Shown: positions 27,302-33,333, counted from the stretch's first letter. The stretch is DNA of 64,000 nucleotides from Minisyncoccota bacterium (GCA_035531495.1 DATKSU010000006.1:1821-65820), one strand, 5' to 3'. A program made the numbers and translations. Notes: a model not told the origin generated them from the sequence alone.

Positions 27302-28531
27302 ATGAGCGATCAGCCGGATAAGGAGCGTGATCACAAGAAGCTCGGACGAGAGCTCGATTTGTTCACGTTCTCTGAATTGGTCGGCGCTGGCCTCCCGCTC
27401 TGGACACCGAAGGGGACGCTGGTTCGACAGGAGCTCGATGCGTTCGTATGGGAGCTTCGTTCGAAGTATGGCTATCAGCGCGTCACCATCCCACATATCA
27501 CGAAACGCAACCTCTATGAGACCTCTGGCCATTGGCAAAAATTCGCCGAAGACCTCTTCAAGGTGACTTCGCGCGATGAGCGCGAATACGCCATCAAGCC
27601 GATGAACTGCCCGCATCACACGCAGATATTCGCGCGCCGGCCGCACTCGTATCGCGAGATGCCTCAGCGCTATGCGGAGACGACGATGGTGTACCGCGAT
27701 GAACAGTCGGGAGAATTGAACGGCCTCACGCGCGTCCTCTCGATAACCCAGGACGACAGCCACGTTTTCTGCCGCACGTCTCAGATCAAGGAAGAGTTCC
27801 TCAAGATTTGGAACATCATCGATACGTTCTACACGCAATTTGGATTTGCCGACCTTAAGGTGCGCCTCTCGTTCCATGATCCGAAGACGCCGGAAAAATA
27901 TCTCGGCACGCCGGAAATCTGGAAGCATGCCGAGGACTCATTGCGGGAAATCGCCCATGAGCGCGGTGCCGCTTCCTTCGAAGCGCCCGGAGAAGCTGCG
28001 CTTTATGGGCCGAAACTCGATTTCATCGCAAGCGACTCCATCGGTCGCCAGCATCAAGTCGCGACTATTCAGCTTGATCTCAACCTTCCCGAACGTTTCG
28101 ACCTTTGCTGCATCAACGAAAAGGGTGAGCGCGAGAGAATCGTCATGATTCATTCGGCAATCATGGGCTCGATTGAACGGTTCACCGCTGTCCTGCTCGA
28201 ACACACCGCGGGCATGCTGCCGCTCTGGCTCGCGCCGGTGCAGGCGCGCGTGCTCTCGGTATCGGAGAAGCAGACGGCCTATGCGCGCGAGGTCTTCGAA
28301 GCACTTAAAACCGCCGGCATCCGCGCCGAGCTCGACGATTCGGATGAATCGCTCGGCAAGAAGATACGGAACGGGAAAGCCGAGAAGATCCCCTACCTGC
28401 TCGTCGTCGGTGATAAGGAGGCCGAGGCGAAGACAGTGACGGCCGAAAGCCGCGACCACGGGAAGCTCGACGCCCTCCCACTCTCCGACTTCATCGCGCG
28501 CGCCCGCGAAGAGATTTCAGTACGAAAATAG
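27302..28531 (+). CDS. thrS: threonyl-tRNA synthetase, short form lacking N-terminal TGS/editing domains
   Basis: Class II catalytic core (NCPHHTQIF, RVLSITQDDSHVFC) and a C-terminal anticodon-binding domain. It is only 409 aa. TATTCT sits 7 nt upstream of the ATG. Confidence 0.85.
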   Translation: MSDQPDKERDHKKLGRELDLFTFSELVGAGLPLWTPKGTLVRQELDAFVWELRSKYGYQRVTIPHITKRNLYETSGHWQKFAEDLFKVTSRDEREYAIKPMNCPHHTQIFARRPHSYREMPQRYAETTMVYRDEQSGELNGLTRVLSITQDDSHVFCRTSQIKEEFLKIWNIIDTFYTQFGFADLKVRLSFHDPKTPEKYLGTPEIWKHAEDSLREIAHERGAASFEAPGEAALYGPKLDFIASDSIGRQHQVATIQLDLNLPERFDLCCINEKGERERIVMIHSAIMGSIERFTAVLLEHTAGMLPLWLAPVQARVLSVSEKQTAYAREVFEALKTAGIRAELDDSDESLGKKIRNGKAEKIPYLLVVGDKEAEAKTVTAESRDHGKLDALPLSDFIARAREEISVRK

Positions 28532-28545
28532 CCGCGAGCGCGTAG

Positions 28546-31500
28546 TTACGCGCCGATGGCTGCGAACGCGCGGGTGAGCGCGAGCTTCGCGCCGGTCACA
28601 CTCGCCGTGTAGCTCGAGTCGATAGCGGTGGTGAGGGAGGAGACGAGCTTCTCGAGGGTCGGCGTGTCGAAGCGCGCCGTCATGCGCACGACGTCGGGGT
28701 CGCACGGCGTGCCCTCGATGCGGGCGCGGTAGGCGTCGTCGAGCATGCAAACGGCATCCGTGAGCATCTTCTCCGGGGATTCCCCGCCGCGCGCTTGCTG
28801 GCGGATAGCCGCGAAGACCGCGCTCCGGTCGCCCTCGATGAGCGCCGCGAGGAAGCCGCGCACGTGCGCCGGCGGCAACGCCGCGCCGGCGGCGGCAGGG
28901 ACCGCTTCGAACGACTCGACGTGTTCGAACACGGGTTCGACGTGCTCATAGACCGGCTCCGTCTGCGGCGCGGGCGCCGGGCGCTCCGCGCGGCGAGCTG
29001 CCGACGGCTCGCGCTCGCGCGTGAGGCCCTTTACAATGTCGTCGACGGAGAGCGCGCCGGTGGCGTGACTGAACGACTTGAACCCTTCGAAGGGCGAATA
29101 GCCGCGCGGTGCGTCGACGGGCGCCTCGGCATGCAGCGCGGCAGGCGCGGGCTGTGGCGCCAGCTCATGCGCCGGCTCCTGTTCGGCGTTCAGAGCATCC
29201 GAAAGGCGCAGACCGAACGAGTGTCCGGAGCGGACGACGAACGGCACCGCGCTGAAGAGCACGAAGTATGCGAGAGCGAGCGAAAGGCCTATGAGGACGA
29301 GCCAGTACACTGTCGTTCCGACCGGACCGAGGTCGAGGCCGGTGTACGGAATCTGCGAAAGGTAGAGGTACGCGAGCGGCGCCGTGCTCACGTGCGGGAG
29401 CGCCGCGAGCGTGATGGTCGGAGGAGGCGTTCCGCCGCCTCCGCCTCCACCACCACCGCCTCCGCCGCCTCCGCCGCCTCCGCTCGTGACGTCGAGAGTC
29501 GCCGTGCAGATGAGGGTTTGGCCGGTATCCGTGTGGAACGTGCCCGTGTACGTATGGCTGCCGATGCTCGTCGGGGATACGCTCGCCGAGCCTGAGACCG
29601 CCGTCGTCGTGCCGACGCCGTTATCGATGAAAACTCCCGTGATGCCGAGGCCGCCCCAACTCAAGGTCGCCGCATTGCCGGAGACGACGCTCGTCGGGCT
29701 GACAGCGAGCGTGCAGGACGGACCGCCGCCTCCCCCGCCGCCGCCGACCGTGACGCTTGCGGTGCAGGTGCCGACCCTACCCATCGGGCTCACGACCGTC
29801 CCAGTGAAGACGGTGTCGGCCGTGATGGCCTTCGAGGTCGTCGTCCCGCTTACAGCTGGCGCGACGCTGCCGATGCCCTGGTCGATGGAGAACGTATCGG
29901 CATCGGTCGTCGCCCAGGCGAGGATCGTGGTGTCGCCCGTCGTGACTGACGCGGGCGTCGCCGTGAGCGTGCAGGTCGGCGTCGCGGGCGGCGGCGTCGA
30001 GACGGTGATGGTCACCGCACAGTGGGCCGTACCGCCGGCGCCGATAGCCGTTGCCGTATACGTCGTCGTCGTGATCGGCGAGACGGATGTAGAGCCGCTC
30101 GCGACCGGGGTCGACGTCCCGACGCCGTTATCGATCGTGAAGGACGTCGCGTTCGCCGACGTCCACGAGAGCGTCGCCGAACTGCCGCTCGTGATGGATG
30201 CGGGATTCGCGGAAAGCGTGCAGGAGACGGCAGGAGGAGGAGACGTCGTCACCTTGACCTTCGCCGTGCAGTGAACCGTGCCGCCGGAACCGGTCGCCGT
30301 GCCGGTATACGTCGTGGTCACGATCGGCGATGTCGTCGCCGAGCCGCTCGCAACGGGCGTCACGGAGCCGACGCCGTTATCTATGGAAAAGGAAGCGGCG
30401 TTCGAGGTCGTCCAGGAGAGCGTCGCGGTATCACCGGGTGCGATGGACGACGGGCTTGCCGAAAGCGAGCACATGGGTGCCGCGGGCGGGGGCGGCGATA
30501 TCACCTGCTGGTTCTTGAAGACGACAGCTGCGCAGACAGGACCGACCGGCACGTCGACCTTCCCGTCCGCCGGCGTGACGGACAGGAGCTTCCAGGTGCT
30601 CCCGGCCGGCACTTCGGTGACCTGATGCATGCCGACGGAGACTCCACTGAACGATGCGTTGCCATTCGCGTCATTCTGCGTCGTCAGTCCGCCATCAAGC
30701 GTGAAGGTGAATTGCGCAACCGGCTTCAGTTCGTTGCCGTTCGGATCGAAGGTCTCTTTCAGTATAGAGATGCAGCCTTTCGCGGGCGGGGGCGTCGTGA
30801 CGATCACTTTCGCCGTGCAGTGAACCGTGCCGCCGGAACCCGTCGCCGTGCCGGTATACGTCGTCGTCGCGGTCGGGGAAACCGAGGTCGAGCCGCTCGC
30901 AACGGGCGTCACGGAGCCGACGCCGTTATCTATGGAAAAGGAAGCGGCATTCGAGGTCGTCCAGGAGAGCGTCGCGGAACCGCCGTTCTGGATGGACGGA
31001 GGGCTTGCCGAAAGCGAGCACGTGGGTGCCGCGGGCGGCGGGGGCGTCGTGACGGTCACGGTCGTCGTACAGTGCACGGTCTTGCCGTCCGACCCCGTCG
31101 CCGTACCCGTATACGTCGTCGTCACGGCCGGCGAGACCGTCACCGAGCCGCCGGACGCGGGCGAGACGGAACCGACGCCGTTATTGATGGAGAAGGACGC
31201 CGCGTTCTTCACGGACCAGGTAAGCGTCGTCGAGTCGCCCTTCGCGATGGATGCCGGACTCGCGGAGAGTGTGCAGGAGCACGGGCCGGGCGGCGGGGAC
31301 GTCGTGACAGTGATTGTAATCGAGCAGTGGGCCGTCGCCGTCGCGCTCGAGACCGTACCGGTGTACGTCGTCGTCACAGCTGGCGAGACCGTGACAGAAC
31401 CGTGCGCGACCGGCGTCACGGGACCGATACCGTTGTCGATTGTGAACGACGTCGCGTTCGCCGTCGCCCACGAGATGACGGTCACGGAACCGCCGTTGAT

Positions 31501-31716
31501 GCTCGTCGCGCTCGCGGAGAGCGAGCACGAGGCCGCGGCGTAGGATGAACTCAAGGAGCCGCCGGTCAGGTCGTGCGCGAACACCTGCGCCGGGGTAATC
31601 GCACCGGTCGCCAGTGCGACGACAGCGCCAAGAAGAAGCGTCGCGGATATTGCAAGGACGCCGATGAGCATCGGACGGCGGATCGTATGGGAAATGAGGT
31701 CGTGGTCGGTATGCAT
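28546..31716 (-). CDS. giant cell-surface protein (~1056 aa from M28; track ORF 1083 aa): signal/TM, at least 8 tandem Ig-like repeats, poly-Gly linkers, IPYTG motif, TM segment, ~250-aa cytoplasmic tail
   Basis: Repeats of the form CSLSASP..I..G..ATLSWTTSNAASFSIDNGVGSVTPVASGS..SP..TTTYTGTATGSGGTVHC, runs of GGGGGGGG and G17, and LSQIPYTGLDLG followed by the hydrophobic VYWLVLIGLSLALAYFVLFSAV. The sortase gene is adjacent. Confidence 0.8.
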   Translation of the reverse strand: MHTDHDLISHTIRRPMLIGVLAISATLLLGAVVALATGAITPAQVFAHDLTGGSLSSSYAAASCSLSASATSINGGSVTVISWATANATSFTIDNGIGPVTPVAHGSVTVSPAVTTTYTGTVSSATATAHCSITITVTTSPPPGPCSCTLSASPASIAKGDSTTLTWSVKNAASFSINNGVGSVSPASGGSVTVSPAVTTTYTGTATGSDGKTVHCTTTVTVTTPPPPAAPTCSLSASPPSIQNGGSATLSWTTSNAASFSIDNGVGSVTPVASGSTSVSPTATTTYTGTATGSGGTVHCTAKVIVTTPPPAKGCISILKETFDPNGNELKPVAQFTFTLDGGLTTQNDANGNASFSGVSVGMHQVTEVPAGSTWKLLSVTPADGKVDVPVGPVCAAVVFKNQQVISPPPPAAPMCSLSASPSSIAPGDTATLSWTTSNAASFSIDNGVGSVTPVASGSATTSPIVTTTYTGTATGSGGTVHCTAKVKVTTSPPPAVSCTLSANPASITSGSSATLSWTSANATSFTIDNGVGTSTPVASGSTSVSPITTTTYTATAIGAGGTAHCAVTITVSTPPPATPTCTLTATPASVTTGDTTILAWATTDADTFSIDQGIGSVAPAVSGTTTSKAITADTVFTGTVVSPMGRVGTCTASVTVGGGGGGGGPSCTLAVSPTSVVSGNAATLSWGGLGITGVFIDNGVGTTTAVSGSASVSPTSIGSHTYTGTFHTDTGQTLICTATLDVTSGGGGGGGGGGGGGGGGGTPPPTITLAALPHVSTAPLAYLYLSQIPYTGLDLGPVGTTVYWLVLIGLSLALAYFVLFSAVPFVVRSGHSFGLRLSDALNAEQEPAHELAPQPAPAALHAEAPVDAPRGYSPFEGFKSFSHATGALSVDDIVKGLTREREPSAARRAERPAPAPQTEPVYEHVEPVFEHVESFEAVPAAAGAALPPAHVRGFLAALIEGDRSAVFAAIRQQARGGESPEKMLTDAVCMLDDAYRARIEGTPCDPDVVRMTARFDTPTLEKLVSSLTTAIDSSYTASVTGAKLALTRAFAAIGA
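29700..31560. repeat. near-identical tandem DNA repeats (~270-280 bp unit) encoding the Ig-like domains
   Basis: Stretches such as 30255-30440 and 30800-30985 are almost identical at the nucleotide level. Confidence 0.7.
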
Positions 31717-31796
31717 GTGATTACGCCCTGAAACGGCAGCCGGCCTTCGGCTGCGCAGATGCCCTGCCCCCTTGCGGAGAGCCATCCGACTCCACA

Positions 31797-32474
31797 CTAC
31801 CCGGGAATCGGATGACTTTCAACAAAGTCGGCGACAACGACGAAACGGTCGGATTTCGAGGCGAACGAGTCACAGGTCGAGAGGGTGAGGACGCGACCTG
31901 TGACCGACAGCGGAATAGCGGCATCGTTCGCACTCTCCTTCGTCATGCTCACGACCGCATAGACGTACGCCATGTCAGCGGAGTCCACCTCAATGGAGTC
32001 GCCGCTCTCGAGCTTCTGGATGCCGTCGAAGGTCTTATAGGCCTGGTTCAGCACGATCGGCAGATAGCTCGAGTGGCCGAAGAGGACGACGTTGCCCGGC
32101 TCCCCGAGCTCCGCGGAGGTCGGGTAGCGCACGGCGCCTTTGAGGAGCAGCTGGTCGAGCGCATCGATATTCGTCGTGTCCGGATTCGCGATGGCCGCCG
32201 AGAGCGCGATTGACGGGATTGATATCTTTACCGGGAACTCGGCGCCCGCTGCGGGCGCGGGCGCCCTCGTGCCCGCTGCGACGAGGACGTCCGACGAGAG
32301 CGCCACCGCCGGCGCGGCCGGCGCGGCCGGATCCGGCAGGAGGTCGAGCCGCGCGAGGACGGCGACGCCCGCGCCGAAGACGAATACGGAAATGACGAGG
32401 AAGCTCCACTTCCTCCCATAGGCCCGCTTCCCGGCCCGGATGAGCCGCGCGACGATGCGAATGACGCTTACCAT
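31797..32474 (-). CDS. sortase family transpeptidase
   Basis: N-terminal TM anchor, catalytic His in VVLFGHSS and the TLSTCD Cys motif characteristic of sortases. Confidence 0.75.
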   Translation of the reverse strand: MVSVIRIVARLIRAGKRAYGRKWSFLVISVFVFGAGVAVLARLDLLPDPAAPAAPAVALSSDVLVAAGTRAPAPAAGAEFPVKISIPSIALSAAIANPDTTNIDALDQLLLKGAVRYPTSAELGEPGNVVLFGHSSYLPIVLNQAYKTFDGIQKLESGDSIEVDSADMAYVYAVVSMTKESANDAAIPLSVTGRVLTLSTCDSFASKSDRFVVVADFVESHPIPG

Positions 32475-32502: not shown

Positions 32503-32519
32503 TGTCAATTATGTCAATC
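32503..32519. promoter_or_regulatory. tandem TGTCAAT direct repeat (operator-like) in the divergent sortase/CARDB intergenic region
   Basis: TTGTCAATTATGTCAATCG lies immediately upstream of the CARDB promoter. Confidence 0.3.
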
Positions 32520-32528
32520 GAGGCGGAT

Positions 32529-32557
32529 TTGACACGCCCCGAGGATAGTGGTATCTA
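32529..32557 (+). promoter_or_regulatory. sigma70-like promoter TTGACA-N17-TATCTA for the CARDB gene
   Basis: Consensus -35 hexamer, a 17-nt spacer and a -10 box 11 nt upstream of the ATG at 32569. Confidence 0.5.
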
Positions 32558-32568
32558 GAACCCGTCCT

Positions 32569-33333
32569 ATGCGCATCTTCAATACCGTCTCTCCGGGCCG
32601 CCAGGCAGCCGTGAATTCCCTCGCGGCGGTCGGCTTCGTCGCGCTCGTCGCGGGCGGAATGTGGCTCGCGGTCTATTCCGCGCGCTACGTCCCGACCGCC
32701 ATCGGCAACCTCGGCACGGCCGCGGTGTCGCTCTCGAGCATCTTCGCGTCGAGGGGTGCTCCGGCGGGCCTCTCGGTCGTACCGGCCGCGACGACGACGC
32801 TTCCCTTCTCGAGCGCGAGCTCGACGATGGTGTCGACGGCGGAGCCCGCGCCCGTAAAGACCGCATCGCCTGCCCCCTCGCCGACGCCGGCGACCGGCAA
32901 GGAAACGACGCGCACCATCCAGGTCGGCGGCGCGACGACGCCCGCGCTCTATGGCCTCCCTGACTTCACCGTCACCATCGACGCGACGGGCTACCTCGCG
33001 ACGACCTCCGCGACCTCCTTCGTCGCGACGTCGACCGTCCCGGCCGGCAGCCGCCCGGCGGTCAAGTTCACCATCAAGAACATCGGTACGAACGCGACCG
33101 GCCCCTGGCGCTTCAGTGCGTCCATCCCGACGCAGACCGCGTATATCTACCAGTCCCTGCCGCAACAGTCGCTTAATCCGGGCGATAGCATCGAGTACAC
33201 GCTCGGCTTCACCGAGGCGAACTCGGGCGCGAACCAGACCGTCTCCATCACCGCGAACTTCGACCATGCGGTTGCGGAATCGAACGCGAACAACGACAGC
33301 GCGTCCGCGCAGCTGACCATCCTCGGACGGTAA
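32569..33333 (+). CDS. secreted CARDB-like (cell-adhesion-related) domain protein
   Basis: N-terminal hydrophobic signal or anchor, a Thr/Pro/Ala-rich linker, and a C-terminal beta-rich domain with a NPGDS motif and NANNDSAS. Confidence 0.6.
   Translation: MRIFNTVSPGRQAAVNSLAAVGFVALVAGGMWLAVYSARYVPTAIGNLGTAAVSLSSIFASRGAPAGLSVVPAATTTLPFSSASSTMVSTAEPAPVKTASPAPSPTPATGKETTRTIQVGGATTPALYGLPDFTVTIDATGYLATTSATSFVATSTVPAGSRPAVKFTIKNIGTNATGPWRFSASIPTQTAYIYQSLPQQSLNPGDSIEYTLGFTEANSGANQTVSITANFDHAVAESNANNDSASAQLTILGR

Follow-up and report, generated by a model that had tools for sequence, protein, structure and literature searches.

Sortase substrates are defined by a short and disposable C-terminal signal, which in classical LPXTG proteins such as Staphylococcus aureus protein A is combined with an N-terminal signal, a repeat ectodomain and a Pro/Gly stalk, and consists of a [hydrophobic]-P-x-T-G pentapeptide followed by a hydrophobic segment and basic residues. 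Class GN ('marine') sortases have an adjacent single target gene with a family-specific extended signal, and the two are conserved as a pair. The pentapeptide itself varies among systems, and in pneumococcal pilins IPQTG and VPDTG have been proven to act as sortase signals (PMC5640630). There is also a precedent for a role of the membrane remnant of a sortase substrate, the Streptococcus gordonii C-peptide, which in the work as cited in PMC11326707 is sensed by SGO_1180. Here we describe a locus in a 64,000-nucleotide stretch of Minisyncoccota DNA, from a very small uncultured member of the Paceibacteria in the candidate phyla radiation (GCA_035531495.1 DATKSU010000006.1:1821-65820; hereafter the window, with positions counted from its first letter) in which a sortase gene adjoins the gene of a large surface protein, whose sorting-signal-like motif, IPYTG, is followed by a transmembrane helix and a long, conserved tail.

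The locus shares features with each of these systems and differs from all of them. The large protein has every part of the classical LPXTG anatomy listed above, and its neighbour has the His/Cys/Arg sortase fold with an N-terminal anchor, as does S. aureus SrtA. However, classical signals end ~5-10 residues past the hydrophobic segment, where the large protein has 228 conserved residues; in addition the motif flanks and the transmembrane helix are strongly conserved here, the sortase reaches no class cutoff, and there is one substrate gene per sortase. This last arrangement is like that of the class GN pairs, with one sortase gene beside one cognate substrate gene, but the sortase is of a different lineage (16.5 bits to the class GN model TIGR03784, against a cutoff of 158), and the class GN targets, unlike the large protein, have ordinary short C-terminal signals and no cytoplasmic domain. 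Streptococcal pilins, with their IPQTG and VPDTG signals and class C sortases (PMC5640630), are similar in having Ile or Val at position 1 of the pentapeptide and Ig-like or SpaA-like domains, but this locus lacks a pilin Lys motif, a class C lid, a C-terminal sortase anchor and a pilus cluster, and its large protein has the long tail. Whereas the S. gordonii remnant is, in the work as cited, a peptide of ~30 residues sensed by a histidine kinase, the remnant here would be a 263-residue protein with a folded domain.

The reading that we favour, and to which we would give about an even chance, is that the sortase and the large protein are a dedicated pair of enzyme and substrate: a cut between T and G would anchor a hypervariable ectodomain to the wall and leave behind a functional, conserved membrane and cytoplasmic remnant. 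A previous examination of the same DNA without database searches (the sequence-only reading) had left the choice between a processed substrate and a membrane-anchored adhesin that is merely co-located with the sortase. Comparative evidence now favours the processed substrate, without proving it: the sortase domain and its motifs are intact, the gene linkage is strict, the anatomy of the signal and its P/T/G pattern are those of sorting signals, the tail is conserved, and a free-standing paralogue of the tail exists.

The sortase and the candidate sorting signal

The two genes lie on the minus strand in the order sortase (31797-32474, with the open reading frame (ORF) reaching 32489) and then a 1083-codon frame (28546-31797), with a gap of at most ~80 bp. 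From the annotated ATG, at 32474 as in the sequence-only reading, the product is 225 amino acids (aa) long; it matches NCBI HUY62461.1 ('sortase [Candidatus Paceibacterota bacterium]') with 100% identity and has a sortase superfamily domain (Pfam PF04203, 73.3 bits against a cutoff of 26.6) and an N-terminal transmembrane anchor (32346-32408, minus strand). The His motif GHSS (32067-32078; aa 138-141), the Cys motif TLSTC (31872-31886; aa 202-206) and the Arg motif DRFVV (31836-31850; aa 214-218), all on the minus strand, align in register with the His, Cys and Arg regions of Bacillus anthracis SrtA (2kw8) and are invariant among 30 homologues, in agreement with the sequence-only reading, which had called a sortase with His and Cys motifs here. 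The family is well conserved, the top 120 matches being 60-70% identical, and among solved structures a class A enzyme is nearest (E 9e-5). No NCBIfam sortase class model reaches its cutoff, the best being class E (50.3 bits against 160), with scores of 31.8 bits for class D, 25 for class F and 21 for class C; the class C lid motif and C-terminal transmembrane anchor are both missing. By these sequence comparisons the sortase is unclassified, and transpeptidase activity is predicted from its fold and motifs.

The two genes are at the coordinates given in the sequence-only reading, and the Gly8 and Gly17 linkers, the IPYTG motif and the hydrophobic helix that it described are all present in the large protein. 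Along the protein the two Gly tracts are followed by LAYLYLSQIPYTGLDLGPVG, the transmembrane helix, the basic cluster RSGHSFGLR and then 219 residues. The pentapeptide (29338-29352, minus strand; aa 816-820, in the context LSQIPYTG) is part of an extended motif, LAALPHVSTAPLAYLYLSQ-IPYTG-LDLGPVG (29317..29409, minus strand), with T819|G820 as the predicted scissile bond; stretches that span this signal are YLSQIPYTGLDLG and AYLYLSQIPYTGLDLGPV. The helix (aa 828-855, also helical in the AlphaFold2 (AF2) model) starts eight residues after the pentapeptide, and R/K residues lie beyond it in the basic cluster (aa 856-864; helix and cluster together 29206..29316, minus strand). The protein has in this respect what is expected of an LPXTG-type substrate, namely [L/I/V]-P-x-T-G outside a hydrophobic segment with basic residues, and this is the only [ILV]PxTG site with a following transmembrane segment in the six frames of the window.

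Comparison of related proteins shows which residues of the signal are constrained. In a logo made from 90 cluster representatives, L at -3, S at -2 and the P, T and G of the pentapeptide are each present in 89-90, and Y in 88. The pentapeptides of 85 loci are IPYTG (73), IPQTG (7) and VPYTG, LPYTG, MPYTG, IPRTG and IPHTG (one each); the P, T and G are never substituted, I, V, L or M occupies position 1, and Y, Q, R or H position 3. Judged from these sequences, the substitution pattern is the constraint pattern expected of a sortase pentapeptide. Since IPQTG and VPDTG are proven signals (PMC5640630), the motif of the large protein lies inside the known range, and it need not be called non-canonical, as it had been.

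The sortase and the large gene are found together in every informative locus. A sortase gene lies upstream on the same strand, at a distance of 4-2836 bp, in 49 of the 49 fetched loci with more than ~1.6 kb of upstream DNA (45 distinct GTDB species representatives and L001-L004), and wherever a sortase is lacking, the sequence of the locus stops inside the ORF or reaches less than 1.6 kb beyond it on the upstream side. The pairing is kept in divergent subfamilies (L085, L086, L087 and a contig of JGI 3300056388), and in L087 it is kept though the downstream neighbour is no longer thrS. The homologues that have a name are all from Patescibacteria (Kaiserbacteria, Paceibacterota, Minisyncoccia). 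The sequence-only reading had noted that a sortase of a housekeeping class, combined with canonical sorting signals elsewhere in the genome, would speak against a pair of this kind. Neither was found: no class cutoff is reached, and there is no credible classical C-terminal sorting signal in the window or in 1.29 million six-frame-ORF residues of related loci (1.2 Mb, mostly of the same neighbourhood and a small part of any genome).

We note that in 32 related loci a conserved gene for a secreted or lipoprotein-like protein of ~360 aa is located between the sortase and substrate genes (e.g. L008:6735-7886). It has no Pfam match and no sorting signal, and a homologue is present neither in the sortase locus of the window nor elsewhere in the 64 kb. 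Pfam searches with the accessory genes between sortase and substrate in relatives gave no matches.

A different arrangement is seen in one divergent lineage, where the order is sortase, two small genes, a 586-aa gene, a 241-aa gene and thrS. The 586-aa product has Ig-like repeats, YLSQLPYTG, a transmembrane helix and a shortened tail with a helical domain. The free-standing paralogue, found in one lineage, is of 241-246 aa, is bounded by an upstream stop and starts MHGLDLNAFG... or MADGLTLDPLG..., such that its N-terminus falls on the G of PYT|G (profile position 22); after this come the transmembrane helix, a GFKSF/IEDIVKGL segment and the helical domain. That a separate gene starts at this very residue shows that the C-terminal part can function without an ectodomain, and that T|G is a natural boundary.

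Several observations weigh against processing by the sortase. Conservation of the flanks (YLSQ on one side, GLDLGP.GT..YW on the other) and of the helix extends far beyond that of ordinary sorting signals, with Y at position 3 in ~86-98%, and this conservation beyond the pentapeptide could reflect a structural juxtamembrane element rather than recognition by an enzyme. No curated sorting-signal hidden Markov model (HMM) in NCBIfam or Pfam matches the protein or the isolated signal at E values up to 10, and the signal is not at the protein end as in LPXTG-type substrates, with 263 residues following the motif. Synteny in the clade is conserved over a larger block (gyrB...thrS-dnaE-rnhB), so the adjacency of the two genes is partly inherited and not independently maintained. 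The scan for other substrates covered the window and the related loci, so that the pair can be called dedicated only presumptively. Literature searches on IPYTG and VPYTG, or on sortases in the candidate phyla radiation (CPR) or Patescibacteria, gave no description of the family; no sortase substrate with a long conserved cytoplasmic domain was found in the literature, and we know of none. For all family members alike, it is from sequence that we infer cleavage, attachment to the wall and a function of the tail.

Some of these points would be accounted for if the large protein remains intact as a type I bitopic adhesin or receptor, an alternative that we take seriously but on balance doubt. 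The tail would then cooperate with the ectodomain (in clustering or outside-in signalling), LSQIPYTGLDLGP would be a structural juxtamembrane motif, and the sortase would serve substrates encoded elsewhere. A motif more extended and conserved than a generic LPXTG signal and not matched by any sorting-signal HMM, the conserved aromatic and small residues of the helix (YW...W...AY..LF..P), and a tail that is present in 85/85 loci, with 241-298 residues after the motif in ORFs of 316-1497 aa, are all consistent with an uncleaved protein. Against it, an invariant P/T/G with a variable position 3 is what sortase recognition predicts and is not obviously needed structurally, and the pairing with a sortase is strict across divergent subfamilies. 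Moreover, neither the window nor the related loci provide another candidate substrate, and the free-standing paralogue shows that the tail can work without an ectodomain.

The conserved C-terminal module

The sequence-only reading had described about 250 residues without a recognisable domain behind the hydrophobic helix. The long tail is real, the exact lengths being 228 residues after the helix and 263 after the motif, and it is free of recognisable domains in Pfam and NCBIfam at threshold, but structure prediction gives its last ~105 residues as a confident helical bundle of recognisable fold. It is not peculiar to this protein, and belongs to a conserved module of a large family. With the last 294 residues as a query there are more than 195 full-length matches at 45-60% identity, and when 1.8 billion cluster representatives were searched with a profile, the module was seen in 1046 clusters (50% identity) at E <= 1e-3, always at the C-terminus and in proteins of up to 1378 aa among the representatives; the named hits are all from Patescibacteria. 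Neither Pfam nor NCBIfam has a model for this combination of motif, transmembrane helix and tail. The near-invariant alignment blocks are the motif, the transmembrane helix, the GFKSF...IEDIVKGL segment, VEPxYE repeats and the last ~105 residues. By sequence, the module is far more conserved than the hypervariable ectodomain, and the tail is the most conserved part of a large protein family.

When read from DNA, the full ORFs of relatives start with an N-terminal signal; the ectodomain behind it varies (Ig repeats, poly-Pro or mini-repeats with Cys) and is followed by poly-Gly, with the module last. Database 'homologues' of 250-300 aa were considered as tail-only proteins and rejected, as the DNA shows most of them to be truncated gene calls or contig ends; P0375 was rejected as a frameshifted gene call, and the P0371/P0382 type is the only genuine tail-only gene. 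The metagenome-assembled genome JAJXUQ01 (BP5.bin105) has the module gene on two contigs (L013 and L040), and the two copies differ; either a second paralogue exists or the bin is a mixture of strains.

In the AF2 model of the 294-residue module, made with an alignment, a long transmembrane helix is followed by a low-confidence linker (model residues 82-187) and a six-helix bundle (188-292, corresponding to aa 977-1081 of the ORF). The linker includes a conserved segment of predicted disorder, PRGYSPFEGFKSF...LSVDDIVKGLTR (29017-29109, minus strand; predicted local distance difference test (pLDDT) < 60), and short tandem repeats of the VEPxYE type (28906-28962, minus strand; aa 946-964; pLDDT < 60) that are conserved in the close family. 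The family consensus of these Glu-Pro-x-Tyr-Glu repeats in the disordered cytoplasmic linker is VEPVYExVEPIYENVEP, and from their sequence they look like a short linear binding motif, possibly centred on Tyr. More divergent members have a different helical insert (LExRAHAAGVL...PREDGW) instead.

The cytoplasmic bundle (28549..28869, minus strand; aa 977-1083) is predicted with pLDDT > 90. In a Foldseek comparison with the PDB its top ~46 matches are all clamp-loader subunits, and specifically their C-terminal collar domain III, including Escherichia coli gamma/tau, delta and delta', Bacillus subtilis delta, human RFC and CTF18-RFC; 111-122 columns are aligned at a root-mean-square deviation (rmsd) of ~3 Å, and the best E value is 7e-4. 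Over ~115 columns the predicted segment shares its fold with domain III of gamma/tau (DnaX), delta and delta'. In sequence there is weak colinear similarity to DnaX domain III, including the start (FxxALxxGD...G..xE.fl) and the end (GxKLALtRAl). Of the Pfam matches below threshold, the one that recurs most is PF12169 (gamma/tau domain III), seen in 6 of 31 family members with a best E of 0.015; it aligns in register with the window protein at 13.2 bits (E 0.076), below its gathering cutoff of 24.4. With hhalign the start of domain III was aligned to E. coli DnaX, and against a DnaX domain III alignment there are 103 colinear columns covering the whole domain (P 8.8e-4, probability 23%). By sequence the PDB has only the E. 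coli domain III, so the DnaX profile is shallow (Neff 3.3), and no DnaX homologue is present in the fetched loci. In contrast to clamp loaders, no AAA+ domain is matched in front of the bundle, which is instead tethered to the membrane by the transmembrane helix and disordered linker. With the score below Pfam's cutoff, distant homology of the bundle to clamp-loader domain III is probable but not established. Domain III mediates subunit assembly in clamp loaders, so that oligomerisation or binding of a partner is the most economical proposal for the function of the bundle.

A tail with an assembly-like domain also bears on the alternative that the sortase acts as the site-1 protease of a signalling or shedding device, which we consider unlikely. 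The cut at T|G would be constitutive or triggered by host contact, the ectodomain would be set free or linked to the wall, and the remnant would be activated in the cytoplasm, possibly after intramembrane proteolysis. All of the evidence for cleavage applies equally here, the tail domain is similar to one by which the proteins of clamp loaders assemble, and the sensing of the S. gordonii C-peptide, as cited in PMC11326707, is a precedent. However, nothing points to regulated cleavage, no site-2 protease or regulator is linked to the genes in the locus, and the likeness to domain III is one of fold, with a weak sequence signal. A bolder and distinctly improbable reading is that sortase maturation yields two proteins from one gene, a hypervariable host-attachment protein on the wall and a conserved membrane protein, and that the latter has in its cytoplasmic domain a genuine homologue of the clamp-loader collar. 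This domain would form a ring or dock onto clamp-loader subunits, and replication or the cell cycle of these reduced episymbionts would in this way be tied to the display of the surface protein or to contact with a host.

The ectodomain

The gene of the large surface protein occupies 28546..31785 (minus strand; ~1060-1080 aa), with an uncertain start. Candidates are M5 (ATG at 31785, preceded by GGAG), M28 (ATG at 31716, the start in the sequence-only reading) and the most upstream GTG (31797), from which the open frame has 1083 codons. An N-terminal hydrophobic segment (31600..31671, minus strand; aa 43-66), preceded by an Arg-rich stretch and followed by ...AQVFA|HD, is by hydropathy a signal peptide or signal anchor, such that the protein has the secretion signal of LPXTG-type substrates; of the 53 homologous ORFs that are complete, 45 have a corresponding segment.

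The ectodomain (29488..31527, minus strand) has seven Ig-like modules at aa 91-164, 175-249, 260-333, 443-516, 526-599, 609-684 and 695-770, connected by Pro-rich linkers. They are 74-77 aa long with a period of ~83-85 aa including linkers (DNA tandem periods of 249 and 255 bp), share 32-85% pairwise identity, and each has a Cys at its start and another near its end. The earlier count of at least eight near-identical modules of ~90 aa is therefore to be corrected, the eighth domain, at aa 342-432, being different. That the modules are Ig-like is indicated by structure prediction alone: the AF2 model of one module, made with an alignment, is an all-beta sandwich of six or seven strands (pLDDT 94.8) that matches Ig, PKD, SoxY and intimin structures at template-modelling scores of 0.6-0.75. 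Pfam models, including Big and PKD, do not match the modules. Searches of PDB sequences with the Ig module and the tail domain, by sequence and by profile, gave only noise, and nothing in Pfam or NCBIfam is above threshold for the whole protein, the tail, one module or the isolated signal.

The inserted non-repeat domain (30502..30774, minus strand; aa 342-432) is weakly SpaA/prealbumin-like, of the Cna-B type (PF17802, E 0.004, below cutoff), and at its position relatives have clear SpaA, DUF11 and DUF7467 domains. The ectodomains of relatives overall carry SpaA, DUF11, DUF7467 and Ig-like domains, and we count the SpaA, DUF11 and Ig-like domains, which are typical of wall-anchored proteins, in favour of a sortase substrate. 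The Gly8 linker is at 29722..29745 (minus strand; aa 685-692), and the Gly17 linker (29431..29481, minus strand; aa 773-789), which has mixed GGA, GGC and GGT codons, lies directly before the conserved module; a run of at least four Gly within 60 aa upstream of the motif is seen in 79 of 85 loci.

Domains and signals of these types raise the question of a pilus, with the Ig-repeat protein as a pilin polymerised by the sortase; we disfavour this strongly. IPxTG-type motifs together with Ig-like or SpaA-like domains are typical of Gram-positive pilins, but the large protein has no pilin motif of the YPKN type ([WYF]P[KR][NDHG] is absent), and the sortase scores 21 bits for class C and has neither the lid motif nor the C-terminal helix. 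Furthermore the locus has one sortase and one substrate gene, and the protein is a 1000-aa multi-repeat chain and not a compact pilin.

The repeats also affect annotation. Antisense 'shadow' ORFs with high GC3 (G+C at third codon positions) lie opposite the Ig repeats of the window (29366-31540, plus strand), and in other assemblies of the same organism such ORFs are taken as genes by gene callers (e.g. L089:4340-5035 and L090:2034-2657). Contigs often break within the repeats, also in other assemblies of this organism. With shadow ORFs called and contigs ending inside repeats, public annotations of the family are often truncated, split or on the wrong strand. That the ORF itself is an artefact, either chimeric and mis-assembled or opposite to the true coding strand, is scarcely credible, even though those assemblies break inside the repeats, antisense ORFs are called in them and a GC3 filter on the window chose antisense frames, as the module at the end of the 1083-codon frame is conserved in over 1000 clusters, its signal-ectodomain-poly-Gly-module architecture recurs in more than 50 independent assemblies, and the antisense frames are broken by stops.

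Genomic setting

The window has a G+C content of ~65%, and the sortase locus is flanked by the housekeeping genes rnhB, dnaE, thrS, gyrB and pheT. A sigma-70-like promoter match (32508..32535, minus strand) lies 5' of the sortase gene; it is the only one in the region and a match to the consensus only, with one found where 0.5 are expected. A site scan of the region gave no terminator-like site between the sortase gene and the large gene, and the arrangement is compatible with co-transcription, for which the promoter evidence is weak. Two terminator-like hairpins (30356-30375 and 30905-30924, plus strand) are identical, represent the same stretch of two Ig-module repeats and are not terminators. 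Divergent from the sortase gene is a gene for an N-terminally anchored CARDB-domain protein (32548..33333, plus strand; Pfam CARDB, 28.2 bits), which has the same position in nearly all related loci and is a conceivable partner or acceptor in the sortase system.

Among the neighbouring genes, we note that thrS (27302-28531, plus strand) encodes a threonyl-tRNA synthetase of only 409 aa. A 413-aa orthologue has just the catalytic and anticodon-binding domains in Pfam, and the enzymes of distant relatives with the same synteny (L085 and L086) are of 576-579 aa and have the editing-type tRNA_SAD domain; from these comparisons the editing domain appears to have been lost in the clade of the window.

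Proposed mechanism and significance

By sequence and comparison, the large protein is exported by means of its N-terminal signal and carries a fast-evolving, disulfide-containing Ig-repeat ectodomain on a Gly/Pro stalk. Transfer through the membrane stops at the transmembrane helix and basic cluster, which places the last ~230 residues in the cytoplasm. In the scenario that we propose for a dedicated sortase-substrate pair, the adjacent membrane-anchored sortase, probably made from the same transcript, would recognise YLSQ-[IVLM]PxTG-LDLGP eight residues outside the membrane, cut between T and G and move the ectodomain to peptidoglycan, the outcome being wall anchoring and not pilus assembly. 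The remnant, consisting of G-LDLGP, the helix and the 230-aa tail, would be a conserved membrane protein and not a disposable peptide, and its clamp-loader-collar-like bundle most likely oligomerises or binds a partner. Such processing would yield two products, a variable wall-bound protein, which is a candidate for host attachment, and a conserved membrane and cytoplasmic module.

This large and apparently undescribed family combines a sortase-type signal and a conserved cytoplasmic module of 230 residues in one protein, and is strictly paired with an unclassified sortase of its own. The pairing is widespread, and it is embedded among core housekeeping genes in a major clade of the CPR; the sortase and its candidate substrate would be part of the core gene set of this large Paceibacteria/Kaiserbacteria-like clade. 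The module family deserves an annotation model of its own; at present its genes are truncated, split or called antisense by gene callers. If cleavage occurs, it would widen the concept of a sorting signal, in that the 'remnant' is itself a functional protein, and it would single out a core, fast-evolving surface protein as the likeliest means of attachment to a host in organisms of whose cell surface very little is known.

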